DNA of 64,000 bases from positions 3,134 through 67,133 of the forward strand of contig JAYFRF010000009.1 in NCBI GenBank assembly GCA_034926225.1, written 5' to 3'. Under the pieces are notes generated by a model. The model was not told the origin of the DNA. It ran no database searches and saw only the letters and a list, made by a program, of their open reading frames with translations. Source of the stretch: Clostridiaceae bacterium (GTDB lineage: Bacteria > Bacillota > Clostridia > Oscillospirales > QAMX01). The position numbers were made by a program, and so were the translations under genes. Positions 16,667-40,326 of the stretch are shown piece after piece; position 1 is the stretch's first letter, and every line of letters starts with the position of its first letter.

Positions 16667-16667
16667 A

Positions 16668-24390: not shown

Positions 24391-24766
24391 GACGCACCTC
24401 CATTACCTTGTCGAGGAGATCGTCCACAAAGAGCTCGCATTCCTCCGGGATGAGTTCATGGACATCTTCGATATCAAAGCTGTCGAAAAGCTCCCGGAGC
24501 GCCGCACCGTATCCCATATCGGAGAAAGCCTCCACAAGGAGCGCGACCGCGTCGAAGTTGATATTGCTTGTGTGCATCATCCTGTCGGTGCAGTCTGCGC
24601 AATTCACCTCTGTGTCATAGGGGTCTTGCGCTCCGGCGAGAATAAGCTCCCGCAGATCCATCTGAATTTCCTTGCCGCATACGGCGCAGCGGGTATAAGT
24701 GGTCTTTGCCGTAACGGGACCGCACACGACCGCGCCGTCCTTCAGCTTCGTTTTTGTGTAAATCAT
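24377..24766 (-). CDS. Hypothetical protein (CxxC...CxxC zinc-ribbon-like)
   Basis: The start was refined to the ATG at 24766, after GGAGGTA plus 6 nt. It contains the CAVCGKE...CADC pair. Confidence 0.55.
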   Translation of the reverse strand: MIYTKTKLKDGAVVCGPVTAKTTYTRCAVCGKEIQMDLRELILAGAQDPYDTEVNCADCTDRMMHTSNINFDAVALLVEAFSDMGYGAALRELFDSFDIEDVHELIPEECELFVDDLLDKVMEVRHDGQ

Positions 24767-24804
24767 CTTCTCTACCTCCGCAGTATTCGTGATGAACGGA
24801 AAAT

Positions 24805-24848
24805 CCGTCCTCACCTCGTACAGGACAGGCAAGAACGGAAACCGTACC
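24805..24848 (-). repeat. 44-nt conserved intergenic element, copy A
   Basis: ccgtcctc-acctcgtacaggacaggc-aagaacgg-aaaccgtacc. It ends exactly 38 nt before the ATG at 24766. Confidence 0.8.
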
Positions 24849-24852
24849 ATAT

Positions 24853-25362
24853 TTAATCTTTTTTCTGCTGACGTCGATTACGTTGTTGTTCTTGGATTGA
24901 TATCCATCGGCAGTTTTCTGGACAGTAGTTGCCGTCCGGGTTAATTCGATCAATAGTAAGCCCCATTTGATAGCCGGATTTCATGGCCCATTCTCGGAAG
25001 GGCAAATATTCATCCCATTCTTGGCAGATGGATATACCTCTTGCTCCGTAATAGTGAAAATCATGGTTTCTCGGATTACGGCACCGTTGCCGCATTTGAC
25101 TCCACACGGCCCTCAACGACTCGTTGTAATAACCGTGTTTTGTAGCTTTTTTGCGCATATAATCTTGCCTTAGACATCCGCAACTTTTTGTACTTCCGCA
25201 TCTTAAGCTGGCTGCTTGAACTGAAATAATCCGCCCACATTCACACGAACATGAATAGATAACTCTCTTTTTAATGTTTGGGAGTCTGTTGTTTACACTC
25301 AGTCTTCCAAATTTCATCCCAGTGAGATCAATAAAGTTGTTTCCACCGTGCATAACTATCAC
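24853..25362 (-). CDS. Free-standing HNH-like homing-endonuclease-family protein
   Basis: FGRLSV...CSCECG...GSTKSCGC...YGARGISICQEW...IDRINPDGNYCPENCRW. This family is commonly annotated as HNH endonuclease in phages. It is AT-richer than its neighbours and abuts the polymerase stop codon. Confidence 0.65.
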   Translation of the reverse strand: MIVMHGGNNFIDLTGMKFGRLSVNNRLPNIKKRVIYSCSCECGRIISVQAASLRCGSTKSCGCLRQDYMRKKATKHGYYNESLRAVWSQMRQRCRNPRNHDFHYYGARGISICQEWDEYLPFREWAMKSGYQMGLTIDRINPDGNYCPENCRWISIQEQQRNRRQQKKD

Positions 25363-27744
25363 CTAACCTTTCTGATAGAAATCGCATTCATAGCCGTCGG
25401 CGCGGAGGATAAGACCCGGAGCCCAGGGCGGTGTTCTGCCCATCTGTTCGCAGACCGCCTCAAGGGACATGATCCTGTCTGCTTCAATAATGATTTCATC
25501 GTGTACATGGACAACAATGTCACAGTAGCTCAGGGTCTTCATGGCGTGGCAGAGGATATCCCGGCTCGTAGCCTGAACGATATTTTCCACCAGCTTGGGG
25601 CCGTAGGTTACCAGCCGCTCCCACTTCTTCATGCCGCCGATACCCTCATAGGTGATAGCCTCGCCTCCGAAACGGTTCTCACCGATTCTTGGCTTCACAT
25701 AGGCGAGTCTTCTGCCGGACGGTAGTTTTATGAAAAGGAATCCACTCTCGTAGGAAAACTCGACACCGTAAGCGGATGTAGTGGACTTACCCTTGATAGC
25801 CGCTTTCGCCGCCCGGTCGACCGCCCACCAGAACTTGACGATATTGGGGTTAGCACTGCGCCATGAGTCCACGATAGGCTGAAGTTCTGACTCCTTGAGA
25901 CCCATCTCAAGAGCGCCCATGGCCTTGAGTGCGCCTACGGAGCCGCCGTAGCCGCAGTTGTGGACTAACTTGCCCGATACGGTAAAACGATGATGTGGTC
26001 CGACATTTCGTATGTCATAAAGTCGAGCCGTGTGCTTATTAGTTTCCAATTCTTTCGTTTCTCGAAGACTTTTGTTTCCGCATCCTGTATTACCCAACCG
26101 TATCGGGTTCCCACCATATCCGGTTTGTTTGAGATGTGCGCCGCAGGAGGTGGCGAATCCAAATCGTATCGGCTCCGGTTGCCCCTCAATCCAGACAAGG
26201 TGGTCTGGTGTAGCCGTAAGTCCCTCATAAGTAATCACCTCTCGTTCACCTTTATATATGATGCCATCGTGTTTAACCCAGTTTTCTCCATCCCACAGTT
26301 TCATATCTGTGGTAACATTTTCGATTCTTATTAAGCCATGGTTCGTTAATACAAGCTGCCCTTCAGCAATACAGGCTAATTCTGCGATCTTTCCCTTCTG
26401 TCTTAGTTCTCCGTTTACGCCGTGCTTGACCACGGGGACATGAAACATCTGCGAGGCGGTGGCGCAGTAAATATCTTCGCCCTTGGCGAAAGCGTCCGAT
26501 TTCCACTGTTCTTTTGCAAACCATGAGATGACCCTTGCCTCGATTGCCGAGAAGTCCGCCACGATAAACTTCCTGCCGTTCTGCGGCACGAAAGCAGTGC
26601 GGATAAGCTGAGACAGAGTATCCGGGATATCCTCATACAGCATTTCAAGAGCGCCATAATCTTCAGCACCGGCAAGGGCGCGGGCTTCGGCGAGGTCGGG
26701 GATATGGTTCTGAGGCAGATTTTGTAACTGGACCAGCCGCCCGGCGAATCGGCCCGTGCGCGAGGCTCCGAGGAACATGAACATTCCTCGGACACGGTTG
26801 TCGGCGCAGACGGCGTTTTTCATCGCCGTGTATTTCTTTACGGACGATTTCGCAAGCTGCTGGCGGAGCTGCAGCACCGGCACAAGTTCCTCCGGGGCGG
26901 TCTTCAGCCGTGCCGACACTTCTTTCTTGCCGAGGGTGTCTATCTCAAGTCCGTTATCGGCAAGCCAGCCCTTGACCTGCGCCACGCTGTTGGGGTTTTC
27001 CAGAGCGGTCATTTCCCGCATGGCTTCGGTCAGTGCGTCTGTTGACCTTGCATCCAAGGACAGACAGGCGGAAACGAAGGGCATATCTACGCCGATACCT
27101 CTGTCGTTTATTTCTTCGGACAGGTGGTACTCGTCCCACACGAAATCCAGCACGGGGAACTTGGAGAGTTTCTGCGTTATCTGCATCTCGACTTCTACAT
27201 CGCGGAGGTTGTAGGATTTGAAGAGTTCCCACTTTTCCGGGGCGTCGGAGGGCAGGTTTCTCGTCCTGCCGCCGTTTGCCTTTGTCGGTGCACATGGCTG
27301 GCAGAAGAATTTAACGAGTTCCTTGCCCTCGGTCAGCTTTTTCTTTTCAAGACCGAGTATTTCTCCAACATCCGCGAGGGAGAGCGGAAGGCCGAGATAA
27401 GCCGCCCATGTCATGGAGCAGCGCCAGGAGGACGGGTTCAAATAATTCCCAAGAGGATGACCCAGGTGGCGTGAGATACAGATGCGTTCAAACGCGCTGT
27501 TATGGCTCCACTTGAGAACGCCATCATCTTCTATTGCCGCCAGAACGTCGGCGGGTATCTGTTCGCCATGGGCAATATCGACCACTTGAACAGGTTCGTC
27601 ATCAACCGCATAGCTGAACAGAAGAATTCGAAAATCCGGGGACTCGGCATATTTGTAAAGGCCACATTTTTGCAGATCTACGCTGCTGAAAGTCTCAATG
27701 TCACAGGCCAGTTGTTTTATTTTACTCATCTTCTTTTCCTTCAT
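25363..27744 (-). CDS. Family A DNA polymerase with 3'-5' exonuclease domain, interrupted by a mini-intein
   Basis: Exo I is ACDIETFS, motif A is VADFSAIEARV, and motif B is split as RQKGKIAELA / CGYGGSVGAL. Confidence 0.9.
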   Translation of the reverse strand: MKEKKMSKIKQLACDIETFSSVDLQKCGLYKYAESPDFRILLFSYAVDDEPVQVVDIAHGEQIPADVLAAIEDDGVLKWSHNSAFERICISRHLGHPLGNYLNPSSWRCSMTWAAYLGLPLSLADVGEILGLEKKKLTEGKELVKFFCQPCAPTKANGGRTRNLPSDAPEKWELFKSYNLRDVEVEMQITQKLSKFPVLDFVWDEYHLSEEINDRGIGVDMPFVSACLSLDARSTDALTEAMREMTALENPNSVAQVKGWLADNGLEIDTLGKKEVSARLKTAPEELVPVLQLRQQLAKSSVKKYTAMKNAVCADNRVRGMFMFLGASRTGRFAGRLVQLQNLPQNHIPDLAEARALAGAEDYGALEMLYEDIPDTLSQLIRTAFVPQNGRKFIVADFSAIEARVISWFAKEQWKSDAFAKGEDIYCATASQMFHVPVVKHGVNGELRQKGKIAELACIAEGQLVLTNHGLIRIENVTTDMKLWDGENWVKHDGIIYKGEREVITYEGLTATPDHLVWIEGQPEPIRFGFATSCGAHLKQTGYGGNPIRLGNTGCGNKSLRETKELETNKHTARLYDIRNVGPHHRFTVSGKLVHNCGYGGSVGALKAMGALEMGLKESELQPIVDSWRSANPNIVKFWWAVDRAAKAAIKGKSTTSAYGVEFSYESGFLFIKLPSGRRLAYVKPRIGENRFGGEAITYEGIGGMKKWERLVTYGPKLVENIVQATSRDILCHAMKTLSYCDIVVHVHDEIIIEADRIMSLEAVCEQMGRTPPWAPGLILRADGYECDFYQKG
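25957..26373 (-). mobile_element. Mini-intein (139 aa, class 1: Cys1 ... His-Asn / Cys+1) in DNA polymerase motif B
   Basis: It covers residues 458-596. It starts CIAEGQLVLTNHG, has block B TATPDHLVW, and ends RFTVSGKLVHN, followed by CGYGG. No endonuclease domain is present, and the segment is locally AT-rich. Confidence 0.85.
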
Positions 27745-27844
27745 TAGAAAAGCGGCGGAGAAAGACCGTCTCCCTCCGCCGCCCGTTTTGATTACTGCTT
27801 TTCTTCGGCTATTGACTCAATATGCGTCATAGTGCTGCTCTCCC

Positions 27845-28417
27845 TTAACCCAGGAAGTCGTCGTCGGCATCGGACTTGTAGCCGTCGTTGAAATCGTCTT
27901 CTGCCTTGGCTTTACCTCCGAGGGATTCGCCGTCCTTGATTTTCTGGATGTTCTGAAGACCGCAGGCAACGCCTTTATTTCCATTAGAATTAAAAGCATA
28001 GAAACTGAGAGACACACGGGCATACACGCCGGAGTAAATTTCCGAGGTATCGAAGATGGGCTGACAGTGGACATCCACGACGCCGGGAGCATTAGTGCTG
28101 TTGGCGTTCACGAACCAGCAACCCTTGTACGCTTCATCGGCCGGGCGCTCGACATCTCCGTCGCGGAGGGGCGTTTTCAGAGTTGAGAGCGGAGGTACGG
28201 TTTTGCCGCTGCCGCGCAGTTTGCCCTGACCTTCCTCGTAGGCCGCCTGAATAGCGGCCTTAATTTTGGTCACGGTGACAGTGTCGGACTTAGGGATAAG
28301 TACGGAAGTGGAGAACTTCGGCGCTCCGCCGTTCACACTTTTGGCTTGCCATACGTTGGCATAGGAAAGACGGGCCAGGCCGGTTACAACTTTTGTGGGG
28401 TTAACAGAATTTGTCAT
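27845..28417 (-). CDS. DUF2815-family phage ssDNA-binding-like protein
   Basis: GLARLSYANVWQAKSVNGGAPKFSTSVLIPKSD... with an acidic C-terminal tail DADDDFLG. The start was refined to the ATG at 28417, after AAGGAG. Confidence 0.7.
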   Translation of the reverse strand: MTNSVNPTKVVTGLARLSYANVWQAKSVNGGAPKFSTSVLIPKSDTVTVTKIKAAIQAAYEEGQGKLRGSGKTVPPLSTLKTPLRDGDVERPADEAYKGCWFVNANSTNAPGVVDVHCQPIFDTSEIYSGVYARVSLSFYAFNSNGNKGVACGLQNIQKIKDGESLGGKAKAEDDFNDGYKSDADDDFLG

Positions 28418-28430
28418 GATAATAATCTCC

Positions 28431-29534
28431 TTAATTTTCATTTGGGTCGGCGAAGTCATCCGCCGCCGTGTTTAGTTCGTTACGCTTGTCCGATGCCGGA
28501 ACAAGCACGGGTTTGCCTTCGGGCTTGCAGGTCAGCCCGCCGAGGAGCTCATCAAACTTCTTCCTGCCGAGAAGCGAAGTCATAGCCGTTATGCCGAGCA
28601 GCTTGTGTTCATAGGGGTCGTACCCCGCGTCCTTGACCGCGGCTGCAGCGGCATCATCATCTGTGTACTTGCGGTTGCTTCTGCCGGCCACAACCTTCCA
28701 GCCGTCATACTTCGTGCCGGAAAGTGCCTGGGCAAGAGCGTAGTCCTTGACGTCCGACGCCCAGGAAACCAGTTCGTCGATTTTACCGAGGATGTCCGCA
28801 ACCTCGCAGATTTGCAGTAGAGCGGGGTCTGTGAAGTCATAGGCGGCAAGCGCCATATTTGCTTCGGCTCTGGCTCTGCATTCCGCTTTCGCCTTGCAGA
28901 ACCGGCAGTGGTCGCCAGCCTTATAGCTGCCTTTGCCGTCCCATGCGAGTTTCGCTGCCGGGACAAGCACGGTTTCCGCCCATTCGGTGAGAGCCTCTGC
29001 GGTCGTCTCCCAGGTCTGCACATTGCCGAGCCTTGGCTGATAGATACTCATCCGCACGGTATCGAACCGATAGAGGAAGTCGAACATCCGCATGGCACCG
29101 AGGGCGTAGATGCGAAGCTGGTCATTTTCTTCCGCATCGACCTTTACGCCGCGTCCGCTTTTCAGATCGATGATGTGCAGGACGCCGTCTGACACGATAA
29201 GTGCGTCGCAGGTGCCAAAGCACTCCGGGACATAGCGGGAGCAGTCCACGCGCTGCTCAACAAATACAGCCGGGTTTTTGAGTCCTTCCGACTGCTCCAT
29301 TACGAAGTCGGTGTAATCGGATGTGTACTCATCCATCTCCGCGTCATCGCAAGTAGGAGCGTTTTCGGCTCGTCCGAGTCGGTGGTTGAGTTTCTCCTCC
29401 GCCATGCTGTGGGCAATGGTGCCTTCCGCCGCGTAGCTTGACACGGTGTCTGCGAGGAACTCCGTGAGCCGTGCCGACGGTGGACACGCAATCCACCTGT
29501 GGCTTGCCGAGGGAGAGAGGAGTGCGTGGCTCAT
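28431..29534 (-). CDS. DUF2800-family PD-(D/E)XK nuclease (Cas4/RecB-like)
   Basis: The N-terminus LLSPSASHRWIACPPSARL and the C-terminal Cys cluster CRFCKAKAEC are typical of DUF2800. Confidence 0.75.
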   Translation of the reverse strand: MSHALLSPSASHRWIACPPSARLTEFLADTVSSYAAEGTIAHSMAEEKLNHRLGRAENAPTCDDAEMDEYTSDYTDFVMEQSEGLKNPAVFVEQRVDCSRYVPECFGTCDALIVSDGVLHIIDLKSGRGVKVDAEENDQLRIYALGAMRMFDFLYRFDTVRMSIYQPRLGNVQTWETTAEALTEWAETVLVPAAKLAWDGKGSYKAGDHCRFCKAKAECRARAEANMALAAYDFTDPALLQICEVADILGKIDELVSWASDVKDYALAQALSGTKYDGWKVVAGRSNRKYTDDDAAAAAVKDAGYDPYEHKLLGITAMTSLLGRKKFDELLGGLTCKPEGKPVLVPASDKRNELNTAADDFADPNEN

Positions 29535-29857
29535 AACAGCGCCCTCGCTTCCTCCATGAGCTCTTCATAGAACTCACTTTCAACCTCGGACAGCTTTTCA
29601 CAGCCGCGGCTTTCAAGCAGCTTCTTTACCTCCGCCGTTTTTCCGCCGCGGGATACCTCCGCCAGCAGAGCGCGGACTTCGGCAAGCTCCGGGGCCGTCT
29701 TCTGAGGTGCTTTGGGAGAGGGACTGCCAACCTCGTATGCCTTGAGCGCCGTACTCAGCTTAGTCACGCTGCCAGCCAGCGAGGTGAGTTCTGCGATTAC
29801 ACGCGCCAGGGTTTCCGCGATGTTGACCAGTTCGTTCCCGATTTCGGTGATTGTCAT
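29531..29857 (-). CDS. Hypothetical coiled-coil protein
   Basis: A 108-aa ORF with RBS GGAGGTA plus 6 nt. Confidence 0.5.
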   Translation of the reverse strand: MTITEIGNELVNIAETLARVIAELTSLAGSVTKLSTALKAYEVGSPSPKAPQKTAPELAEVRALLAEVSRGGKTAEVKKLLESRGCEKLSEVESEFYEELMEEARALL

Positions 29858-29895
29858 TCGGTTTACCTCCGTTTCTTATTTGTGAGAGGTCTTGT

Positions 29896-29939
29896 CCCTC
29901 TCCACCTCGTACAGGACAGGCGGAGAGGGAAACCGTACC
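29896..29939 (-). repeat. 44-nt conserved intergenic element, copy B
   Basis: ccctctcc-acctcgtacaggacaggc-ggagaggg-aaaccgtacc. It ends exactly 38 nt before the ATG at 29857. Confidence 0.8.
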
Positions 29940-29951
29940 GAAACGCAGAAA

Positions 29952-30524
29952 TTATTCGAAATAGTTTTTGAGAGCGTAATTTTCACGGAGAGTCTGTGCG
30001 AGTTTCTTCACGCGCTTGCGGATAGCGCCCTCGCTCAGACCGCATTCCTCCGCAATCTTTGCCTTGGTCTTGTCGCTCAGAAGCTCGTCCCATAGATACC
30101 GCTCCTCCGGGGTAAGGGCGTCAACAGCAATGCGAATGGATGTGATGGTTTCCTTTTTTATAAGGAATTCAACTGGACCGTCCGCGTCGTCCGGGATATC
30201 AAAGCCACTTTCCTCGCCGTCCTCGGAGCGGGACATAGGCTTATCAATTTCGAGGTTGCCGTGCTTGGCGGCTCTCACCGTCCAGCGTTCCTGGCGCTTG
30301 AGGTCGGCGGCGTTTGCCTTGTGGGTATCGTCACCCATCGTGTTTCTGGGTAGCCGAATTGCCATCTCGCGGTCGGGACTGTAATACCAGCGTTGAACGA
30401 AGGGGTTGTCCGCTGTGGGCGTTTCTGCTGGGGCGAAGCACTCTTGTCGGGTGCATTCGACTGTTTCTCCGCTTGGGCGCATACGGTAATAGTGGCGGTA
30501 GTGGAACTGTTGGTAGTTTTTCAT
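29952..30524 (-). CDS. Sigma-70-like / HTH transcriptional regulator (phage early)
   Basis: The C-terminus LTPEERYLWDELLSDKTKAKIAEECGLSEGAIRKRVKKLAQTLRE is region-4-like. The start was refined to the ATG at 30524, after CAGGAGGAAACACC. Confidence 0.65.
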   Translation of the reverse strand: MKNYQQFHYRHYYRMRPSGETVECTRQECFAPAETPTADNPFVQRWYYSPDREMAIRLPRNTMGDDTHKANAADLKRQERWTVRAAKHGNLEIDKPMSRSEDGEESGFDIPDDADGPVEFLIKKETITSIRIAVDALTPEERYLWDELLSDKTKAKIAEECGLSEGAIRKRVKKLAQTLRENYALKNYFE

Positions 30525-30565
30525 GGTGTTTCCTCCTGTGATTCGCCGGGGCTTCAGCGGCGGAG

Positions 30566-30604
30566 GAAACAAATAAAGGGTCTGCATCCGATGGACACAG
30601 ACCC
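30566..30604 (-). terminator. Rho-independent terminator oriented on the minus strand, upstream of the sigma-like gene
   Basis: In minus-strand reading: GGGTCTG, a 13-nt loop, CAGACCC, followed by TTTATTTGTTT. Confidence 0.55.
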
Positions 30605-31047
30605 CGTTTCGCCGAAAATGAGCGCACGAAACTAAGGTGGTGGCACATCGGAGCTCCGGGAGCGGTCTTTATCACCGTTCCGAGAACCTCTATGTAACCT
30701 CCACCGCTTCATGGCCACTCAGCAGTGTGATATATTTTCTGAGCCGTATAATCCGCGGCTCCTGCGGACAGTTAAGCTTTTTTGAGCGAGCCTCTTGTAA
30801 AATCTCAAATAGTAATGTATAATTAAGTGTGATTTAGTGGTAACAAGTCGAAGTAAGTAAAGTTCTGCTTGGGTTCAATGTTGCGTGAGGAATGCTCAAA
30901 TGGCTTGTCCAGCCTTACAAGCTGATTATAGATAATTTAAGTTCCACCTTCACCGACTGGGGTTGGGACTTCGTTCGGACGAATTAGGACATTATTCAGA
31001 CAATTCGGACCGATGCATAAATCGGAGGACATGAGAGGGATGCAGGA

Positions 31048-33381
31048 ATGAAATACACGGATTATTTCTCAAATTTCTATATGGGCAGAAGCTCCGGTGG
31101 CATCCTTGGGCACAAGTCCAAAGAAAAGATTCCAGAATACTTTTTCAATGCCGCGTTACCTGAAGATCACTATGAACTTTTGCCAACTTCGAACAGCACA
31201 TACGGAAAATGGTTTGATGGGACACGAAAACCAGAAGGCGTTATTTGGGGAACAGTTGTTTCGCATTTTGACGAAGATGGTTTTATTGACGAGACCTCGA
31301 AAAAGCTGAATGACAGTGTGTTAAGGGACATCATGCATCGCTTTGGCATTGAATTACAAACAGGAGAAAATCCTGATAAACACCTCTTTGCGTTTTCGCT
31401 GGCTAAACTGTTTTATGCAATCGCTCAAGGAAATGGAGAGACCACAGACGAAGCAAAGAATTATTACAAGCCAGAAGCACATATCATTTCTTTTCATCAG
31501 TACGTTGCACGGACAATAGCTAAATACGAGAAAATAAAAACGCCCTTCTCGGAAGGAGAAGAGCGTTTGATAGACGATATATATGTTTGCAATAAATTGA
31601 GTAGCCGGCTCTCAGCTACAAGGAACCGGCACCGCGGAACTCAAGAAAAAATTATTCTTAATGCGACTCTCGACTTGATTGAAGAATATTCAAAGAAAGT
31701 CATCCTTGTTGCAAATGGCGGAATGGGAAAAACGATGCTGCTTCAGCATCTGCTTCTTGAATCAGTCCGTAAGCACACACAAACGGGTCTGCTTCCAATC
31801 ATAATCGAACTCCGCGACTTTAGCGAGGGCAATGATCTGTTGAATGATTACATAATAAAGACAGCAAGTGTTTATGATGAAAACTTGACCAGCAAAAAAG
31901 TCGAAGAGTTGATGATATCAGGCAAATGCCAAATTCTTATGGATGGCGCTGATGAGATTGATCCTTCCGATGAAAAAGCATTTCAGCGGAAAATAGCTGA
32001 ACTTATCGATAGATACCCATACAATCAGTATGTCTTGGCCTCTAGGGAATGTGGGTTATTAAAAGGCATCACTGGTTTCTCACGGATGTATCTTCACCCC
32101 TTCAGCAGGGAGCAGTCAACTACACTAATTGATAACCTCTTAAAGGGTTGTGACGACGAAGCCATTATCGAAAGTATAAAAAATTACACGGAGGGCGATT
32201 TTCTCCAAAGGCACAAGGTGTTTGCTTCAAATCCCATGCTACTGACCTTTGTTATTATGAAGTATCCTATTGTGGAATCCTTTGATGGAAAAAAGAGACT
32301 ATTTTATAGAGCTGTATATGATGCAATCGTATATGGACACGATGAGGAAAAGGAAGGTTATTCTAGAGTATTTAGAAGTGCTCAAAATGCTGATGAATTT
32401 ACAAAGGTATTTGCCGAACTATGTGCCACCACATATATGAAGCACGAAGCAGAGTTTGATCTTGACACATTTGATGAGTACTTTAACAACCTGGCCACGA
32501 AGAATAGTATTGAAAACCCCAAAGCCATGACCAGTAAAAGCTTTATACACGATGCCTGTGCAACAGCGTGCATGATGTACGAGCAAGAGACGAAGCTCTT
32601 ATATATCGACCCAGGTTTTCAGGAGTATTTGTTTGCCAAGTACTATTTTTCAGCAGCACCCGAGGAATTGATTGCCCTTGGACAAAGCCTTTGGGATATT
32701 GCAGAAACAGAGTTTGAAGGACTCGACGCTTTTGAAATGTTAAATGAGTTTTCCCCTGAGAAATATGAACGGTATTTTCTCAAGCCGTTTTTGGAGAATG
32801 TTTTTCAGGGAAAGGATGAAGCCAAATATTTCATAACATTTTTGCGATATGGGTACCGAGATCTGGAATATCAAATGATTGATCTTGATTGTGTCGCAGC
32901 GTATGCAACGAAAGAAAAGTCCGAATGGGCTTCACCAAAGCCCGCCGTTACGGAACCATCTAGCCTCGTTTTTTCGATGTTACTACGAAAGCTGGGCACT
33001 CCCTGTCTATTGTGCTTGACCATTTTCGAGAAAGCACTTGATTATTCCGAGTTTATGACTGCCGGGATATATGGGGAACTTTATTTCGACCCGGCTGACA
33101 GTAAAAATAAAATTGTCCCTCGCAGATTGTTGCATCAAGAAACTCAAGATTTACAAGCTTACGAGAGAACACACGCAGTCGAAAACCATGTCCGTGATGA
33201 TGCAAAGCAGCTTGTATGTTTTGGACGCGAATATAAGGTTGATTTTAATAAGGTTCTGGAAACACCTGAGAACTACACCGATTTAATCAATGTTCTGAAA
33301 ACGCCAGAAGAAGATGTGTGGAAAACCTTTTGCAAGGTAAAAGAATACTATGAGGGTTTGGTAACAAGATATGGCACTTAA
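31048..33381 (+). CDS. NACHT-type STAND NTPase (NLR-like), flanking domains unassigned
   Basis: Walker A is VILVANGGMGKTMLL (nt 31717-31734) and Walker B is QILMDGADEID (31933-31956). These are followed by YVLASRE, LHPFSREQ and ASNPMLLTFV, which match the NACHT motif order. Confidence 0.8.
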   Translation: MKYTDYFSNFYMGRSSGGILGHKSKEKIPEYFFNAALPEDHYELLPTSNSTYGKWFDGTRKPEGVIWGTVVSHFDEDGFIDETSKKLNDSVLRDIMHRFGIELQTGENPDKHLFAFSLAKLFYAIAQGNGETTDEAKNYYKPEAHIISFHQYVARTIAKYEKIKTPFSEGEERLIDDIYVCNKLSSRLSATRNRHRGTQEKIILNATLDLIEEYSKKVILVANGGMGKTMLLQHLLLESVRKHTQTGLLPIIIELRDFSEGNDLLNDYIIKTASVYDENLTSKKVEELMISGKCQILMDGADEIDPSDEKAFQRKIAELIDRYPYNQYVLASRECGLLKGITGFSRMYLHPFSREQSTTLIDNLLKGCDDEAIIESIKNYTEGDFLQRHKVFASNPMLLTFVIMKYPIVESFDGKKRLFYRAVYDAIVYGHDEEKEGYSRVFRSAQNADEFTKVFAELCATTYMKHEAEFDLDTFDEYFNNLATKNSIENPKAMTSKSFIHDACATACMMYEQETKLLYIDPGFQEYLFAKYYFSAAPEELIALGQSLWDIAETEFEGLDAFEMLNEFSPEKYERYFLKPFLENVFQGKDEAKYFITFLRYGYRDLEYQMIDLDCVAAYATKEKSEWASPKPAVTEPSSLVFSMLLRKLGTPCLLCLTIFEKALDYSEFMTAGIYGELYFDPADSKNKIVPRRLLHQETQDLQAYERTHAVENHVRDDAKQLVCFGREYKVDFNKVLETPENYTDLINVLKTPEEDVWKTFCKVKEYYEGLVTRYGT

Positions 33382-33401
33382 TTCATTGGAAGGGAGTTTT
33401 A

Positions 33402-33641
33402 TTGGACATGAAAGATAGTAAAGTAAATGCTGTAGAACATTGGCTTAGCCTCGAGGAAATTTCAAAGCACGTTGGCTGCAGCAAGGACACCATCCGGTCC
33501 TGGGTCAAAAAGGATACCATTCCCTTCCATAAAGTTGGAAGGCTGTACAAATTTAGAGTATCCGAAGTGGACGCTTGGATTGAAAGCGGCGCAAGCGCAG
33601 ATGCAGATAAAAACAATTCGGAGGTAAAAGACAATGGCTGA
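33402..33641 (+). CDS. Excisionase/MerR-type helix-turn-helix DNA-binding protein
   Basis: WLSLEEISKHVGCSKDTIRSWVKKDTIPFHKVGRLYKFRVSEVDAWI. Its 3' end overlaps the hsdM start by 8 nt (ATGGCTGA). Confidence 0.8.
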   Translation: MDMKDSKVNAVEHWLSLEEISKHVGCSKDTIRSWVKKDTIPFHKVGRLYKFRVSEVDAWIESGASADADKNNSEVKDNG

Positions 33642-35226
33642 CATGAAAAAAGAGCAGGAGCGGGATGAGCTCCACCGTGCCATTTGGGCGATTGCCGACG
33701 AGCTGCGTGGTGCCGTAGACGGTTGGGATTTTAAGAACTATGTGCTTGGAACGATGTTCTACCGCTATATTTCCGAAAATTTGACCGCGTACATCAACGA
33801 CGGCGAGATTGAAGCCGGAAATACCAGTTTTGACTATGCCAAACTGAAAGATGCGGAAGCGGAGGAAGCCCGCGTCGGCCTAGTGCAGGAAAAGGGATTC
33901 TTCATTCTGCCCAGTGAGCTTTTTTGCAACGTGAGAGCCAGAGCCGCCAGCGGAGAAGGTTGGACTTACCCCAACGGCAAAGAAAAGCTGCTCAATGAAA
34001 AGCTGGAGGAAGTGTTTAGCCACATCGAGGAATCCGCCCAAGGCAGTGCTTCTGAAAACAGTTTTGCAGGGCTATTCGATGACTTTGATGTAAACAGTAA
34101 CAAGCTGGGCAGTACCGTCGCAAAGAGAAATGAGCGTCTTGCAAAGCTGCTGGATGGCGTTGCCGCCATGAATCTCGGTTCTATCAAAGACCATGACATC
34201 GATGCTTTTGGCGATGCCTATGAATTTTTAATGACTATGTACGCCTCCAATGCAGGCAAATCGGGCGGCGAGTTTTTCACCCCAGCAGATGTGTCCGAAC
34301 TGTTGACCCGTCTTGGTACGGTGGGCAAGAAAACCATCAACAAGGTTTATGACCCCGCCTGCGGTTCCGGCTCTCTGCTTTTAAAAGCCGAAAAAATTCT
34401 GGGCAAAGATTCAGTTACTACCGGGTTCTATGGTCAGGAAATCAATATCACCACCTACAACCTTTGCCGCATAAATATGTTTCTGCACGATATTGGCTTT
34501 GATAAGTTTGATGTGGAGTGCGAGGATACACTGATTAACCCGCAGCACTGGGACGATGAGCCCTTTGAACTGATCGTATCCAATCCGCCCTACTCCATCA
34601 AATGGGTGGGCGATGAAAACCCCTTGCTCATTAACGACCCTCGGTTTTCTCCCGCTGGTATCCTTGCACCAAAGAGCAAAGCCGACCTTGCCTTTATCAT
34701 GCACAGCCTTTCTTGGCTTGCAAGCAACGGAACGGCTGCCCTAGTCTGCTTCCCGGGCATTATGTACCGTGGCGGCGCAGAACAGAAAATCCGTAAATAC
34801 TTAATCGACAACAACTTTGTGGACTGCATTATTCAGTTGCCAAGTAACCTGTTTTTTGGCACCTCCATTGCCACCTGCATCATGGTGATGAAGAAGAACA
34901 AGAGCGACAACAAAACCCTGTTTATTGACGCATCCAACGAGTGTATTAAGGTCACCAATAACAACAAGCTGACCCCGGTAAATATCGACCGCATTGTGGA
35001 CACCTTTGCAAAGCGGGAGGAAGTGGCGAACTTCTCCCACCTTGCCGGTTATGATGAAGTAGCAGAAAACAACTATAACCTCTCGGTTTCCACCTATGTG
35101 GAGGAGGAGGACACCCGGGAAGAGATTGATATTGCCAAGCTGAATGCTGAGATTGAAGAAATCGTCATGCGCGAGGACGAACTGCGAGAAGCTATTCGGA
35201 ATATTATTGAAGAAATCGAGGCGTAA
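33634..35226 (+). CDS. hsdM: Type I restriction-modification system, methyltransferase subunit
   Basis: The N-terminal HsdM_N-like region has LWAIADELRG. Motif I is VYDPACGSGSLL and motif IV is VSNPPYSIKW. Confidence 0.95.
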   Translation: MADMKKEQERDELHRAIWAIADELRGAVDGWDFKNYVLGTMFYRYISENLTAYINDGEIEAGNTSFDYAKLKDAEAEEARVGLVQEKGFFILPSELFCNVRARAASGEGWTYPNGKEKLLNEKLEEVFSHIEESAQGSASENSFAGLFDDFDVNSNKLGSTVAKRNERLAKLLDGVAAMNLGSIKDHDIDAFGDAYEFLMTMYASNAGKSGGEFFTPADVSELLTRLGTVGKKTINKVYDPACGSGSLLLKAEKILGKDSVTTGFYGQEINITTYNLCRINMFLHDIGFDKFDVECEDTLINPQHWDDEPFELIVSNPPYSIKWVGDENPLLINDPRFSPAGILAPKSKADLAFIMHSLSWLASNGTAALVCFPGIMYRGGAEQKIRKYLIDNNFVDCIIQLPSNLFFGTSIATCIMVMKKNKSDNKTLFIDASNECIKVTNNNKLTPVNIDRIVDTFAKREEVANFSHLAGYDEVAENNYNLSVSTYVEEEDTREEIDIAKLNAEIEEIVMREDELREAIRNIIEEIEA

Positions 35227-36440
35227 TGATGAGCAAATTAAATGAATTGATTGCTAAATTATGCCCATATGGGGTGGAATATCGAGAACTCGGGGCATTC
35301 GCCCAAAATGAGAAGAAAAAGAATATAGGAGAACATTGTAAGTTGGCCTACAGCATTACACAAGCGGGATTGATTCCCACTTCCGAATACTTCAAAGGTG
35401 CAAAAGTTACAAGTGATGATACTTCCGGATATAGAATTGTAAAAAGAAATTGGTTTGTATATTCTCCTTCTCGAATTGATGTTGGTTCAATTAATTATCT
35501 TAGAGATAAAGATGAAGTGATCGTGAGTCCGCTCAATGTTGTTTTTAGTGTTAATGAAACGGAGATCCGTCCAGATTATCTCTTATACTTTCTGAACTCA
35601 CGGAGCGGAACATGGCAAATAATAACGAGTCGAGAGGGAATCGAGGGTACAGGACGAAAACTGCTACCGTTTGATAAGTTTAAGAAAATAATAGTTCCCG
35701 TTCCCCCTCTGCCCGTGCAGGCTGAGCTTGTCCGTATTCTGGACAATTTTACGGAACTTACAGCGGAGCTTACAGCGGAACTTACAGCGAGAAAAAAGCA
35801 GTATGAATATTATAGAGATAGTCTGTTGAAATGTGACAGCAGCGCTGAATGGAAATCAATGGGAGAAATCGGAAATTTTATAAGGGGTAGAAGATTTGTT
35901 CATGCAGATGATAGGCAAAATGGTATTCCTTGTATTCATTATGGCGAATTGTATACCCATTATGGCATTTCGGCAACGAATGTAAAAACTTATATAAATC
36001 CAGAGTTAAAAACCAACTTCCGATATGCAAAAAAGAATGATGTTGTTATTGTTGCGGCTGGAGAAAATAAGGTTGATATTGGGGTTGGAGTTGCTTGGCT
36101 GGGCAATTATGATGTTGCGATACACGACGCTTGCTTTATTTTCTGCCATAATCAAAATCCTAAATATATATCATATTTCTTGCGAACGGAAATGTTTCAC
36201 CAGCAAATTATTAAATTTGTGTCAGAAGGTAAAATATGTTCTATATCTGCCAATGGACTTGCAAAAGCAAAAATCCCGTTGCCACCCCTTGCCGAACAAC
36301 AGCGCATCGTCACCATCCTCGACCATTTCGATACCCTTTGCAACGATATTTCAACCGGTCTCCCCGCTGAAATCGCCGCACGACAAAAGCAATATGAATA
36401 CTATCGGGACAAGCTGCTGTCATTCCAAGAATTGACCTGA
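35226..36440 (+). CDS. hsdS: Type I restriction-modification system, specificity subunit
   Basis: Two target-recognition halves are each followed by a conserved helix (ELTARKKQYEYYRDSLL and AEIAARQKQYEYYRDKLL). The start overlaps the hsdM stop (TAATG). Confidence 0.9.
   Translation: MMSKLNELIAKLCPYGVEYRELGAFAQNEKKKNIGEHCKLAYSITQAGLIPTSEYFKGAKVTSDDTSGYRIVKRNWFVYSPSRIDVGSINYLRDKDEVIVSPLNVVFSVNETEIRPDYLLYFLNSRSGTWQIITSREGIEGTGRKLLPFDKFKKIIVPVPPLPVQAELVRILDNFTELTAELTAELTARKKQYEYYRDSLLKCDSSAEWKSMGEIGNFIRGRRFVHADDRQNGIPCIHYGELYTHYGISATNVKTYINPELKTNFRYAKKNDVVIVAAGENKVDIGVGVAWLGNYDVAIHDACFIFCHNQNPKYISYFLRTEMFHQQIIKFVSEGKICSISANGLAKAKIPLPPLAEQQRIVTILDHFDTLCNDISTGLPAEIAARQKQYEYYRDKLLSFQELT
35751..35789 (+). 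repeat. Tandem 12-bp repeats encoding (T)ELTAELTAELTA in the central conserved region of HsdS
   Basis: ACGGAACTT ACAGCGGAGCTT ACAGCGGAACTT ACAGCG. Confidence 0.9.
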
Positions 36441-36453
36441 GGAGGTGTAGAAA

Positions 36454-39400
36454 GTGCCATTTTTCAATATTGTTGCCGAAACCAATAAAAACACCGTTGT
36501 TACCGAATATGAGCCGGTCAGAACCCGATCCGATAGCTACCAGAGCGAGTCGGCCTTGGAACAGGAGTTTATTCGTCTGCTGTGTGAGCAAGGCTATGAT
36601 TATCTGCCCATCCACACCGAGGCCGACCTGATTGCCAACCTTCGCACAAAGCTGGAAGAACTCAACGATTACACCTTTACTGATACGGAATGGGAACGCT
36701 TCTTTTCCGACTGCATTGCCAACAAAAACGACGGCATTGTGGAAAAGACCCGCAAAATCCAAGAGGATTATGTGCAGGTGCTAAAGCGTGATGATGCCAT
36801 GACTAAAAACATCACGCTTATCGATAAAAAGAACATCCACAACAACCGCTTGCAGGTCATCAATCAGTACGTGCTTGGCAAAGAGGACGGCGCAACATAT
36901 GACAACCGCTATGATGAGACAGTGCTTGTAAATGGCCTGCCTCTTGTACATATCGAACTGAAACGCCGGGGCGTTGCCATTCGGGAGGCGTTCAACCAAA
37001 TTAACCGTTATCAGCGCGACAGCTTTTGGGCGGGCTGTGGCCTGTTTGAATATGTGCAGATTTTTGTCATCTCCAACGGCACGAACACCAAGTATTATTC
37101 CAACAGCACCCGATTTAATGCCATCAAAGATGCGTCATCCGGCAAAACCAAAAAGGGCAAAACAAGCAACAGCTTTGAGTTTACCTCGTTCTGGGCGGAC
37201 GCCAACAACAAGACGATTCCCGACCTGATTGACTTTACGAAGACCTTCTTTGCCCGGCACGCAATTTTAAATATTTTGACGAAGTACTGTGTTTTCACTT
37301 CTGAGAATATGCTGATGGTCATGCGTCCCTATCAGATTACCGCAACCGAGCGCATCCTCAACCGCATTGAGATTGCGCACAACTACAGAAAATACGGTGA
37401 CATTGCCGCCGGCGGTTATATCTGGCACACCACCGGTTCCGGTAAAACCTTGACTTCCTTCAAGACTGCACGGATTGCCTCGCAGTTGCCGTACATAAAT
37501 AAAGTCCTGTTTGTGGTAGACCGCAAAGACCTCGACTATCAGACCATGAAGGAATACGACCGCTTTGAAAAAGGTGCTGCCAACAGCAACACCTCAACTG
37601 CAATTTTGCAAAAACAGCTTGCTGGAACAAAAGAGCGTATCATCATCACCACAATTCAGAAGCTGTCGACCTTTATCAAGAAAAACAAGGAGCACTCGGT
37701 ATATAACAAAAACGTAGTTATTATCTTTGACGAGTGCCACCGTAGCCAGTTCGGAGATATGCACACGGCAATCGTGCAGAACTTCAAAAAGTATTATATG
37801 TTTGGCTTTACCGGAACTCCAATTTTCTCGGTTAACGCAGGCCGCGCGAAAAATGCGCAGTTCTTCACCACAGAGCAGACCTTCGGCGATCAGCTCCACG
37901 CCTACACCATTGTAGATGCCATCAACGATAGAAACGTGCTGCCCTTCCGTGTGGACTATATCAAAACAATGGATACTGACCGGGATATCGACGACGAGCA
38001 GGTTTGGGACATCGACCGTGAAAAGGCGTTCATGGCTCCGCAGCGCATTTCATTGGTCGCCAAATACATCCTGGATCACTTCGATCAGAAAACCTATCGT
38101 GGCGATAAGTCGTACATCTTTAGTCAGATGACAAATATTTCAGATGTAGCCTCGGCGAAAAGAGGAGCAGTTGAGGAAATTAAACAAAAACAGCGTATCA
38201 GCGGTTTCAACTCTATTTTTGCGGTGGCGTCTGTGGACATAGCAAAGCTGTATTATGATGAATTCCGCAAGAAGATGCGGGAAGACCCCATCAAGCAACT
38301 AAAAATCGCTGTAATCTACAGCTATGCCCCGAATGAGGAAGAAACTGACGGCATCCTTGATGAGGAAAATCCGGAGGATACTTCCGCACTGGACAAGACC
38401 TCCCGCGATTTTCTGGAGAGTGCAATAGACGATTATAACGGGATGTTCCACACCACCTATGACACCTCTTCCGACAAGTTTCAGAACTACTACAAGGATG
38501 TATCTCTGCGGATGAAGAACAAGGAACTGGACCTTTTAATTGTGGTCAACATGTTCCTCACCGGCTTTGACGCTACTACGCTCAACACTCTGTGGGTAGA
38601 TAAAAACCTCAAGATGCACGGCTTGATTCAGGCATTCAGCCGCACCAATCGAATTCTCAATTCGATTAAGACTTTCGGTAATATTGTTTGCTTCCGCAAT
38701 TTGCAAAAGAGAGTGGATGCAGCAATCTCGCTGTTCGGAGATAAAAATGCCGGCGGTATTGTTTTGCTGCAGAGCTTCAAAGATTATTATTACGGATACG
38801 AATCTGTGGATGGCACCCCGAAGCCGGGTTACATTGATATGATCGAGGACTTGTCAAACAAGTTCCCTCTGTCAGAGCCACAGATTATTGGCGAAAAGAA
38901 TCAGAAGGACTTTATTTCACTGTTTGGCGCTATCCTGCGTATTCGTAATCTTTTGGTCTCCTTTGATGAATTTAAGGGGAAAGAAATGATTACCGAGCGC
39001 GATCTGCAGGATTATCTGGGCAGATACCAGGACCTGCGCGATGAATGGAAGCGCAAACGTGAAAATGGTGAAAGCACTGATATTATTGATGATATTGTAT
39101 TCGAGATTGAACTGATCAAGCAAATCGAAATCAATATTGACTATATTCTTATGCTGGTGAAGAAGTACCACGATACGCATTGTGAGGACAAAGAGGTGCT
39201 TGTCACCATCAAAAAGGCAATCGACGCCAGCCCTGAACTGCGCAGCAAAAAGCAGCTGATTGAAACCTTTATTGCCGGGGTCAATGATGTGGATGATGTC
39301 ATGAGCGAATGGCATGGTTTCGTTGCCCAGCAGCGCGAGCAGGATCTTTCTGCACTGATTCAAGACGAAAAGTTGAAGCCGGCAGAAACTCGTATTTTCT

Positions 39401-39585
39401 TGGAAAACTCGTTCCGAGAAGGCGAGATAAAGACTGTTGGTACGGATATTGATAGAATTATGTCACCTGTGAGCCGCTTTGGGGGCGGAAATAGGGAGAA
39501 AAAGAAACAGAGTATCATTGATAAGCTGAAAGCATTCTTTGAGAAGTATTTTGGAATTGGTGGATCGAATAAATTTACATGCTGA
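36454..39585 (+). CDS. hsdR: Type I restriction-modification system, restriction (helicase-nuclease) subunit
   Basis: A 1043-aa ORF with a GTG start after GAGGAGGTG. Motifs are HTTGSGKTLTSF, FDECHRSQFG, and the C-terminal helicase motif FSRTNR. Confidence 0.95.
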   Translation: MPFFNIVAETNKNTVVTEYEPVRTRSDSYQSESALEQEFIRLLCEQGYDYLPIHTEADLIANLRTKLEELNDYTFTDTEWERFFSDCIANKNDGIVEKTRKIQEDYVQVLKRDDAMTKNITLIDKKNIHNNRLQVINQYVLGKEDGATYDNRYDETVLVNGLPLVHIELKRRGVAIREAFNQINRYQRDSFWAGCGLFEYVQIFVISNGTNTKYYSNSTRFNAIKDASSGKTKKGKTSNSFEFTSFWADANNKTIPDLIDFTKTFFARHAILNILTKYCVFTSENMLMVMRPYQITATERILNRIEIAHNYRKYGDIAAGGYIWHTTGSGKTLTSFKTARIASQLPYINKVLFVVDRKDLDYQTMKEYDRFEKGAANSNTSTAILQKQLAGTKERIIITTIQKLSTFIKKNKEHSVYNKNVVIIFDECHRSQFGDMHTAIVQNFKKYYMFGFTGTPIFSVNAGRAKNAQFFTTEQTFGDQLHAYTIVDAINDRNVLPFRVDYIKTMDTDRDIDDEQVWDIDREKAFMAPQRISLVAKYILDHFDQKTYRGDKSYIFSQMTNISDVASAKRGAVEEIKQKQRISGFNSIFAVASVDIAKLYYDEFRKKMREDPIKQLKIAVIYSYAPNEEETDGILDEENPEDTSALDKTSRDFLESAIDDYNGMFHTTYDTSSDKFQNYYKDVSLRMKNKELDLLIVVNMFLTGFDATTLNTLWVDKNLKMHGLIQAFSRTNRILNSIKTFGNIVCFRNLQKRVDAAISLFGDKNAGGIVLLQSFKDYYYGYESVDGTPKPGYIDMIEDLSNKFPLSEPQIIGEKNQKDFISLFGAILRIRNLLVSFDEFKGKEMITERDLQDYLGRYQDLRDEWKRKRENGESTDIIDDIVFEIELIKQIEINIDYILMLVKKYHDTHCEDKEVLVTIKKAIDASPELRSKKQLIETFIAGVNDVDDVMSEWHGFVAQQREQDLSALIQDEKLKPAETRIFLENSFREGEIKTVGTDIDRIMSPVSRFGGGNREKKKQSIIDKLKAFFEKYFGIGGSNKFTC

Positions 39586-39616
39586 TCAAATTTTGCGCTC
39601 GGGAGGTGTTGAGCAT

Positions 39617-39946
39617 ATGGGCCGAGGTTAAAGTATCAATCTATTTTTAATGGACGGAACCGCCACGGGACGAATAAAACGTACCCTTGCTAACTGGACG
39701 AGTGTGGCATATAACAAATAGTGTTGTCTCGCTCACACCTACCAAAAGTTGTCCGGAAGCAATTATTAAGCGTAGAAAAGCCTGTCAGGAAAAATCGATG
39801 TCGAGGGCGTGTTAACTGAAAACACTTTGTTTGGAAGTCCCTCCACAGCGGCGGCCTTTGTTACTTTTGGCGGTGCTAATGGAAATATTATATGGGAAAC
39901 CGCTGAAGGACACACTTTAAAAGACGTCGAGCGGTCTGAAAGCTAG
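39617..39946 (+). pseudogene. Decayed DUF4357/GIY-YIG-associated gene remnant
   Basis: The pieces lie in different frames. They are M-G-R-G-stop; AEVKVSIYF; LMDGTATGRIKRTLANWTSVAYNK-stop; and a C-terminal piece ENTLFGSPSTAAAFVTFGGANGNIIWETAEGHTLKDV, which is the DUF4357 signature. The middle of the gene is missing. Confidence 0.6.
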
Positions 39947-40190
39947 CTAGTAAATGCCGCTAAAGATAGTGCAGGCATGCGATAGCCAGGGCGTTTTGAA
40001 CCCTTTTATTTTTCCTTGAACTTCGTTATTTTTCGTAGAACTATTTTATTTTTCCTAAAGGGGTATTCAAATTGTGCCTTGAGCCGAGAGTACTTCCGAA
40101 GCCCCAAGACGCAAAAAAAGCCTGCAATACAAAGAATTTTGCATACCCGTATGGGGCAAATCCCTTGTATTGCAGGCTTTCTTGATATGA

Positions 40191-40236
40191 ATAATAAAAG
40201 AATTGACCGTAGCATTGTATCAATGCTACGGTCAAT
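40191..40236 (-). terminator. Rho-independent terminator downstream of tRNA-Leu
   Basis: A perfect 16-bp stem ATTGACCGTAGCATTG / CAATGCTACGGTCAAT with a 3-nt loop. On the minus strand it is followed by TTCTTTTATTAT. Confidence 0.7.
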
Positions 40237-40239
40237 GTT

Positions 40240-40326
40240 TGGTGCCGGTGGCGGGGGTCGAACCCGCACGGTGTCGCCACCGCGGGATTTTGAGTCCCGT
40301 ACGTCTGCCAATTCCATCACACCGGC
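40240..40326 (-). tRNA. tRNA-Leu (anticodon CAA), class II with long variable arm, CCA encoded
   Basis: GCCGGTG...ACGGGA-CTCAAAA-TCCCG-CGGTGGCGACACCGTG-CGGGTTCGACCCCCG-CCACCGGC-A-CCA folds as a cloverleaf, with CAA at positions 34-36. Confidence 0.9.

Follow-up and report, generated by a model that had tools for sequence, protein, structure and literature searches.

Introduction

In bacteria, NLR-like proteins, which are related to immune sensors of animals, have been viewed as sensors that act on their own, and their triggers are mostly unknown. Among them, the short bNACHT/SNaCT proteins (bioRxiv 10.1101/2022.07.19.500537) combine an N-terminal domain that varies, an NTPase of the NACHT type in which the Walker A and Walker B motifs are intact, and a short SNaCT domain that diversifies rapidly. 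Restriction-modification (R-M) systems offer other precedents: cell death is triggered by anti-restriction proteins in Ronin, EcoR22I, and PrrC (bioRxiv 10.1101/2023.04.06.535777), and the DNA mimic Ocr reportedly inhibits Type I R-M as well as BREX (PMC7261183). Type I R-M genes can also be led by a small repressor, RptR (PMC12255303). Here, we analyse a stretch of 64,000 nucleotides from a Clostridiaceae bacterium (assembly GCA_034926225.1, contig JAYFRF010000009.1, positions 3,134 to 67,133), hereafter the window, in which a gene encoding a 777-aa NACHT protein that appears to have this three-part architecture stands ahead of a helix-turn-helix (HTH) gene and a Type I hsdMSR operon. Our preferred reading, which we put somewhat short of an even chance, is that this locus is a modular, prophage-borne, two-layer defence operon, where an NLR-like sensor/effector would back up methylation-based immunity by directly sensing counter-defence, as PARIS does.

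The NACHT gene is linked to hsdMSR in the 33 closest loci

The five genes of the locus (NACHT, HTH_17, hsdM, hsdS, and hsdR) lie on one strand, and the gaps and overlaps of 20, −8, −1, and 13 nt given for them in the initial annotation match the table of open reading frames (ORFs) exactly (Table 1). The 20-nt gap between the NACHT stop and the HTH start holds GGAAGGGAG, which reads as a ribosome-binding site; an alternative in-frame ATG of the HTH gene at 33408 would widen it to 26 nt. The HTH gene then overlaps hsdM by 8 nt (ATGGCTGA), hsdM and hsdS share 1 nt, and 13 nt separate hsdS from hsdR. The absence of a terminator between the first two genes, also part of the initial annotation, was borne out by a consensus scan, which shows no terminator-like site on the + strand between 33381 and 33402. 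Because the packing is so tight, the five genes must be co-transcribed or read through, which supports an operon-like unit. The hsdM, hsdS, and hsdR ORFs are all intact and make up, in one operon, a complete EcoR124-like Type I R-M system, with the Pfam domains N6_Mtase and HsdM_N in HsdM, and HSDR_N, SWI2_SNF2, T1R_D3, and EcoR124_C in HsdR.

About 120 cluster-level homologues of the NACHT protein, of the same length and 32–95% identical, are found in Clostridia. A scan of 185,579 species genomes with the family alignment yielded 34 true relatives, to which viral contigs added 13. When these loci were searched with the window proteins (tblastn), NACHT, HTH, hsdM, hsdS, and hsdR shared a strand wherever the locus extended downstream. 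An intact NACHT gene is directly followed by hsdM in 33 of 33 loci and never lacks it, in a census where hsdM was either intact or cut by nothing but the contig end. Since the arrangement recurs in every related locus with enough sequence, it is far beyond chance. Conserved linkage to Type I R-M was the point on which the initial annotation had staked its proposal beforehand, and it holds in all 33 loci; the alternative raised there, mere clustering in a defence island, is not enough to account for so clearly positive a result. The junction downstream of NACHT is always either a spacer of 3–31 nt that holds a ribosome-binding site of GGAGG type or an overlap of the form TAATG. The HTH gene is missing from two loci (L021 and L024), where an intact NACHT gene abuts hsdM directly.

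The same NACHT core and HTH gene head other methylation-based systems

HTH_17 is an excisionase/MerR-like winged helix, with a recognition helix (SKDTIRxWIKK) that is invariant in the NACHT-linked loci. A scan of viral contigs seeded with its alignment returned 39 loci, 36 of which have a NACHT-family gene directly upstream of the HTH gene. The NACHT proteins of these loci keep the Walker A motif and are 28–33% identical to the window protein over residues ~148–650. To annotate the downstream cargo, we ran profile searches on a limited number of representatives and assigned the remaining loci from their similarity to these. Where it could be identified, it was Type I hsdMSR in 11 loci, BREX type 1 (BrxA-BrxB-BrxC-PglX) in 8, an SNF2 helicase with DUF4391 and a Type III-like methyltransferase in 5, BREX type 3 (BrxF-BrxC-PglXI) in 4, and an N6_N4 methyltransferase with a DpnII endonuclease (Type II) in 1; in L172, a Type III-like methyltransferase directly follows the HTH gene. 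HTH_17 leads these five cargo types with gaps of 5–52 nt. Every identified cargo is methylation-based, and none is a CBASS, a toxin–antitoxin system, a retron, or similar.

At least three unrelated classes of N-terminal domain occur in these NACHT proteins and assort combinatorially with the type of cargo. Hence, the NACHT-SNaCT core and HTH_17 are the constant parts of the cassette, and the N-terminal domain and the cargo its exchangeable parts. Because operons of BREX-1, BREX-3, SNF2/Type III-like methyltransferase, and Type II systems, all devoid of Hsd proteins, start with this pair too, the partner of NACHT would seem to be methylation-based immunity and not HsdMSR specifically.

The idea that the HTH gene belongs to a module exclusive to NACHT was rejected. 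In L180 and L181, a Type III Mod/Res pair comes after a more divergent HTH_17 (51% identity), and the gene also leads distant hsd-like cargo in L194 and L203, in all four cases with no NACHT gene. In this phage family, methylation-based cargo has HTH_17 as its generic leader, and the protein is most likely the transcriptional controller of that cargo.

Close relatives of the hsdMSR operon lack NACHT

We examined the association in the reverse direction in 80 metagenomic loci picked by HsdM similarity (82–87% identity). NACHT is present in 5 of them, which are exactly the five with an HTH_17 of the window type. The operons that lack it form one clade in the hsdM tree (L050–L123), where the leader gene encodes an Xre-type HTH_26 protein of 75 aa and overlaps hsdM by 8 nt. 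The palindrome TCACGTTTTCGTGA lies in this clade within a promoter (TTGAAA ... TATACT-like), ~60 nt upstream of the HTH gene, a layout that looks like a classical, C-protein-style autoregulatory circuit for a Type I system. Because such close hsdMSR relatives without NACHT are common, the R-M system does not need NACHT, while the NACHT clade, in the loci examined, never occurs without R-M. Their frequency also makes a guard that binds HsdMSR physically, in the manner of PrrC, unlikely.

The role of controller protein that the initial annotation gave to the small HTH gene is plausible. The 79-aa HTH_17 gene has one trait of such controllers, as it is small and runs 8 nt into hsdM, and an HTH gene overlapping hsdM recurs in the NACHT-less clade. 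The other trait, a promoter of its own with a palindromic C-box, is absent at HTH_17, which has only 20 nt upstream of it; the own promoter and the palindromic operator are confined to the NACHT-less clade with the Xre-type leader. A phmmer search of HTH_17 against all PDB chains gave no match at E < 0.08, including RptR (PDB 9R2Z), and returned only RppC and IS629 OrfA.

The NACHT protein joins a conserved NTPase to two domains with no fold match in PDB

The 777-aa protein matches the NACHT family (PF05729) with 36.9 bits for a cut-off of 26.7. Its Walker A (GGMGKT) and Walker B (ILMDGADE) motifs are intact, and G225, G227, K228, D299, D302, and E303 are invariant across 31 homologues. The match of its C-terminal domain to SNaCT14 (PF22720) is borderline, with 26.9 bits for a cut-off of 27; precomputed matches to this family exist in many homologues, and BREX-linked relatives reach 171 bits. 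The mean pairwise identity is 0.41 in the SNaCT14 region, as compared with 0.55–0.57 in the core. The AlphaFold 2 model has a predicted local distance difference test score of ~95 over residues 1–145 and of 91.5 for the C-terminal domain. Neither domain matched a PDB entry in the fold searches, and for the N-terminal domain BFVD gave only two uncharacterised Siphoviridae proteins; a profile built from the entire family likewise matched no PDB sequence. Among the homologues, the N-terminal domain has five invariant positions (W55, W67, Y140, Y152, and V180), but no invariant acidic or histidine residue. Pfam detects no DNA-binding domain in the protein. A PADLOC match to PDC-S60 was rejected as a sign of family membership, as it covers only the P-loop region.

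A profile search among 1.84 billion representatives showed that the N-terminal domain is almost confined to the NACHT architecture. It also starts proteins with NACHT and FGE-sulfatase, TPR, and WD40 domains, and it is fused to the CTD6 domain of ABC-3C/Lamassu with an MC2 gene downstream (L139:567-1944; P0195 and P0219). In this last context the domain appears to occupy the LmuA effector position of another defence system, and its fusion partners as a whole would place it in effector or adaptor positions of conflict systems. Three NACHT genes that seemed truncated (L030, L045, and L136) were not so, as they encode an 890-aa variant with a different N-terminal domain. A separate observation concerns L032:9980-13200, where a 728-aa ORF fuses the N-terminal domain and the NACHT NTPase (family residues 1–460) in frame to a McrB-type AAA_5 GTPase. 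A McrC gene comes next. The locus is a naturally occurring NACHT-McrBC chimera, and the leader upstream of it hardly differs from the one in L024. A more distant relative (P0206, 31% identity) has downstream of it a 230-aa ORF with a weak match to the MmeI methyltransferase, and no R-M system.

The NACHT protein diverges much more than HsdM and HsdR. Across the 19 complete loci, NACHT proteins have a median pairwise identity of 0.34 (minimum 0.29), HsdM proteins one of 0.83, and HsdR proteins one of 0.82, and the distances are correlated (Spearman 0.64–0.70). HsdS is only 28–46% identical between loci, as expected from the shuffling of target-recognition domains. The ratio of nonsynonymous to synonymous substitution rates is 0.04–0.22 for NACHT, which is therefore under purifying selection, and 0.02–0.08 for hsdM and hsdR. 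Synonymous divergence between the window (31048-35226) and L001 is a mosaic: dS is 0.42 in the N-terminal region of NACHT, 0.045 in SNaCT, and 0.41 in hsdM. This pattern reveals recombination within the cassette and points to recent breakpoints inside the NACHT gene. The NACHT gene is broken beside intact hsdM and hsdR in four loci (L027, L029, L044, and L133), two of which, L029 and L044, have the same deletion, and both parts are damaged in L033 and L034. No intact NACHT gene beside decayed hsd genes was seen in the locus census. Some cassettes (L009, L014, L025, L027, L028, L030, L134, and L135) contain extra partial copies of hsdS and gaps of 0.3–0.7 kb between hsdS and hsdR, which suggests hsdS shufflons or phase-variable specificity.

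The cassette has a phased-repeat leader and lies in a prophage

Of the two promoter-like elements upstream of NACHT (Table 1), the proximal one is found again in ~15 related loci (CTTGTCC..CCTTACAAGCTnATTATAGA) and presumably works as a promoter. The direct repeats that follow start in the window at 30966, 30977, 30987, 30998 (AGAC), 31007, and 31027. The array has a common position in the window, L001–L034, and L124–L136. A script count over 29 loci gave a mean GGAC density of 3.9 per 100 nt, for 0.39 expected, with four to six helically phased repeats per locus and 59 of 83 spacings equal to 10 or 11 nt. Other subclades have arrays of different units (GGATT, TTGGCTT, or GGAA/ATAGAA) in the same place. 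Tandem Repeats Finder did not detect these degenerate leader repeats. The notion that HTH_17 binds them is weakened by the variation of the repeat unit between subclades, since the recognition helix is invariant, and by L024, which has repeats and no HTH gene. The promoter and the repeats are retained at the NACHT pseudogene of L029, which fits a dependence of hsd expression on the region upstream of NACHT. Divergent from the operon, a gene at 29952-30587 (−) encodes a 211-aa sigma-factor-like protein with a region 4-type HTH, and a comparable Sigma70_r4_2 gene lies upstream in L032; this protein may regulate the intergenic region.

The window to the left of the cassette is a prophage. Its early/replication module encodes a DUF927 primase-helicase, an HNH-like protein, a family A DNA polymerase (PolA), an Enc34-type single-stranded DNA-binding protein (SSB), a DUF2800 PD-(D/E)XK protein, and the sigma-like protein; terminase subunits, a ParB-methyltransferase, an S-adenosylmethionine synthetase, and an SNF2 helicase are encoded as well, with the terminase and other phage genes further left. 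The ParB-methyltransferase is a fusion of a ParB N-domain to an N6_N4 DNA methyltransferase and adjoins the full-length synthetase (14278-16711, −). A prophage-borne supply of S-adenosylmethionine stands beside R-M cargo that uses this cofactor. The G+C content is 40–48% in the cassette (~30600-40240) and 52–62% in its flanks. The translation of the decayed ORF 3' of hsdR may resemble the DUF4357/GIY-YIG proteins that frequently accompany Type I R-M.

Table 1. Features of the cassette and its surroundings in the window
Feature	Position	Strand	Details and basis
Prophage early/replication module	21186-30587	-	Pfam, PHROGs
Promoter-like TTGTAA-17-TATAAT	30795-30823	+	Best consensus match upstream of NACHT, 10/12
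Promoter-like TTGTCC-16-TATAGA	30905-30932	+	Position and sequence conserved across loci
GGAC(A) direct-repeat array, 10-11 nt spacing	30962-31033	+	Between promoter-like element and NACHT start
NACHT gene	31048-33381	+	777 aa; ORF table
Residues 1-205, all-helical N-terminal domain, effector/adaptor position	31048-31662	+	No Pfam match; AlphaFold 2 model
Residues 206-560, NACHT NTPase and helical middle region	31663-32727	+	Pfam, translation, invariant columns; most conserved part
Residues 561-777, SNaCT14-type C-terminal domain, presumed sensor	32728-33381	+	Pfam; most variable part
HTH_17 gene	33402-33641	+	79 aa, TTG start; Pfam, PADLOC mad1, PHROGs
hsdM, Type I N6-adenine methyltransferase subunit	33634-35226	+	Pfam 377 bits; PADLOC MTase_I 424 bits
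hsdS, specificity subunit, two target-recognition domains	35226-36440	+	Pfam Methylase_S, two stretches; PADLOC Specificity_I 336 bits
hsdR, restriction/translocase subunit, EcoR124-like (type IC-like) architecture	36454-39585	+	Pfam; PADLOC REase_I 1123 bits
Decayed ORF remnant, several in-frame stops, 3' of hsdR	39600-39950	+	Related DNA after hsdR in L127 and L002
tRNA-Leu(CAA)	40240-40326	-	ARAGORN; right-hand edge of low-GC cassette

A single family of Clostridial temperate phages carries all NACHT cassettes. Nearly all of these have the DUF2800-SSB-PolA module beside them, either upstream and divergent or downstream of hsdR, and it flanks none of the NACHT-less hsd loci examined. We sampled this large phage family without bias, with DUF2800 as a seed, which gave at least 563 matches and 50 loci with enough upstream sequence; none of the 50 has a full-length NACHT gene. 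Several loci of this sample show other arrangements, in which one or more accessory genes precede HTH_17 and a methyltransferase system. In L234, a 296-aa protein (7100-8609, −) with the N-terminal domain of the 890-aa NACHT variant is encoded in a NACHT-less phage slot, followed by a gene for 208 aa, an HTH_17 with 43% identity, and a large system that includes a methyltransferase. Seven other loci have a slot like this one (L195, L223, L230, L236, L247, L254, and L257). Megablast found nothing in the phage collection that matches the cassette.

Discussion

The reading that we favour, of NACHT as a second layer of defence, can be stated as follows. The protein would be a self-contained NLR-like sensor/effector, made of a swappable N-terminal domain of effector type, an NTPase switch, and a fast-evolving SNaCT14 sensor, and it would add a layer of abortive-infection type that is coupled to methylation-based immunity at large. 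It would most likely fire on what invading phages do to defeat that immunity, the candidate triggers being DNA-mimic anti-restriction proteins (e.g., Ocr) or the depletion of S-adenosylmethionine. The partner systems have no subunits in common, which makes a guard docked on HsdMSR unlikely. What they have in common is DNA methylation dependent on S-adenosylmethionine and a vulnerability to common counter-defences, such as Ocr. Because of this shared vulnerability we prefer a mode of action like that of PARIS, by direct sensing of counter-defence, to one like that of PrrC, by docking on HsdMSR.

Several observations weigh against this second-layer reading. The term "effector" comes from the position of the N-terminal domain, because no catalytic motif or recognisable fold was found in either terminal domain. 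All cassettes belong to one phage family, in which shared descent and a common insertion slot inflate the number of independent associations, and the DUF2800-seeded sample of that family contains methylation-based cargo, some of it with HTH_17, without any NACHT gene. Finally, the protein may need no partner, because distant relatives stand without R-M or HTH genes (P0182, with 25% identity, and P0243, with an FGE-sulfatase sensor) and because the bNACHT genes tested by Kibby et al., who portray bacterial NACHT genes as essentially stand-alone, work as single genes (bioRxiv 10.1101/2022.07.19.500537).

One rival reading is that NACHT is an independent passenger, i.e., an autonomous, single-gene antiphage protein that is co-transcribed and co-transferred with the large defence system of the slot, the two layers not interacting. 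We regard this as rather unlikely, if by no means far-fetched. Stand-alone distant relatives and the confinement of all loci to one phage family are what it would predict, as are the use of the N-terminal domain in unrelated conflict systems and the ability of R-M to persist without NACHT, in sister operons that lack it or beside its pseudogenes. Yet no intact NACHT gene of the clade lacks a methylation-based system (0 of 33) despite divergence to ~30% identity. The linkage also survives two positions relative to the phage replication module, the exchange of N-terminal domains, and five types of cargo. Furthermore, a passenger fits poorly with cargo that, wherever identified, is methylation-based and never a CBASS, a toxin–antitoxin system, a retron, or the like.

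It is less probable still, and in our view improbable, that NACHT and HTH_17 form a regulatory switch. They would then be a split STAND-type transcription factor that times the expression of the cargo by sensing infection or establishment, for instance delaying restriction after the lysogenisation of an unmethylated host or inducing it on superinfection. BrxR is a 5'-end regulator of BREX, and STAND NTPases with DNA-binding domains (MalT and AfsR) act as regulators, both of which count for a switch. So do the constancy of the pair ahead of variable cargo, the phased direct repeats of the leader, typical of cooperative protein binding, and the place of the pair at the 5' end, like that of RptR at Type I R-M (PMC12255303). 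However, the HTH is a separate gene, missing from L021 and L024 where NACHT is intact, and the repeat motif varies between subclades while the recognition helix does not. Moreover, NACHT decays where hsd stays intact, its N-terminal domain holds the effector position of an LmuA-like Lamassu protein, and its architecture is that of defensive short NACHT proteins.

A PrrC-like guard of Type I R-M, as implied by the analogy in the initial annotation, in which NACHT would be inactive while bound to HsdMSR and freed when an anti-restriction protein blocks the enzyme, has precedents in PrrC/EcoprrI and Ronin and agrees with the strict hsdMSR linkage of the closest 33 loci, but it is unsupported as stated and very improbable, given that the NACHT family and the same HTH head BREX-1, BREX-3, SNF2/methyltransferase, and Type II systems devoid of Hsd proteins, that evolution is fast in the sensor domain but leaves HsdM and HsdR ~80% conserved, and that NACHT lies 5' of the operon and not between hsd genes.

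The reading of NACHT as a second layer can be taken one step further, to a doubtful generalisation: NACHT-SNaCT14 and HTH_17 would be a front-end dedicated to guarding the whole class of DNA-methylation-based immunity (Type I, Type II, BREX, and SNF2/methyltransferase), with an NLR that checks whether other immune systems are intact, or senses the counter-defences common to them (DNA mimics and S-adenosylmethionine depletion), and triggers a new helical effector domain. If true, this front-end would be a prokaryotic counterpart of the "guard" principle of plant NLRs, carried by temperate phages to protect lysogens, and its confirmation would show, in bacteria, an NLR standing guard over a different immune system. 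With its genetic lock to methylation-based defence, the clade cuts the candidate triggers down to a short list that can be tested: anti-restriction or anti-BREX proteins, S-adenosylmethionine depletion, and failure of methylation or restriction. The prophages of gut Clostridia carry a portable NACHT-HTH-cargo cassette whose effector and cargo parts can be swapped. Two domains that are predicted with confidence but have no known fold also stand out, the N-terminal domain in effector position and SNaCT14, as does a candidate regulatory element, the phased-repeat leader.

Comparison with known systems

We found no prior description of a NACHT-R-M or NACHT-BREX operon in the literature, although our coverage was incomplete and this is only absence of evidence. 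The supplements of Kibby et al. show no link of NACHT genes to R-M. A related concept is that of "guilt-by-embedding" genes in Hma, BREX, DISARM, and Type I R-M loci (bioRxiv 10.1101/2024.01.29.577857), which resemble NACHT in being co-oriented defence genes nested against a modification system. That approach scores genes lying between the genes of a system, whereas NACHT is upstream of the whole system, and NACHT is mentioned neither in its text nor in a 2026 survey of BREX. What sets the window clade apart from the short bNACHT proteins is that its genes strictly come first in operons of methylation-based defence, that they are paired with HTH_17, and that its N-terminal domain is without known fold or function.

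The HTH gene resembles Type II R-M controller (C) proteins and RptR (PMC12255303) in being a small (~79 aa) DNA-binding leader of R-M genes. It differs from them in the lack of detectable similarity to PDB chains and of an intergenic promoter or operator of its own. The STAND transcription factors (MalT/AfsR-like) have their DNA-binding domain fused to the NTPase, whereas the HTH of the window is encoded separately.

NACHT and PrrC in EcoprrI are alike as accessory genes of abortive-infection type, both genetically inseparable from their Type I R-M operons. However, PrrC is an ABC-type ATPase with an anticodon nuclease and has no homology to the window protein, which matches only NACHT/STAND families (Pfam and PADLOC). 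It also lies between hsd genes, whereas NACHT is at the 5' end of HTH-hsdM and its family accompanies BREX and other systems without Hsd subunits. Ronin associates a 61-aa membrane toxin, RonA, with HsdMS and has no HsdR, whereas the operon of the window has a full-length hsdR and no small toxin gene. PARIS-type systems (AriAB) occupy hotspots of phages and satellites and are sometimes nested within loci of BREX or R-M. PARIS and Ronin have no sequence relationship to the NACHT operon, but both are triggered by Ocr/ArdA-type proteins and follow the same second-layer logic that we propose for it.

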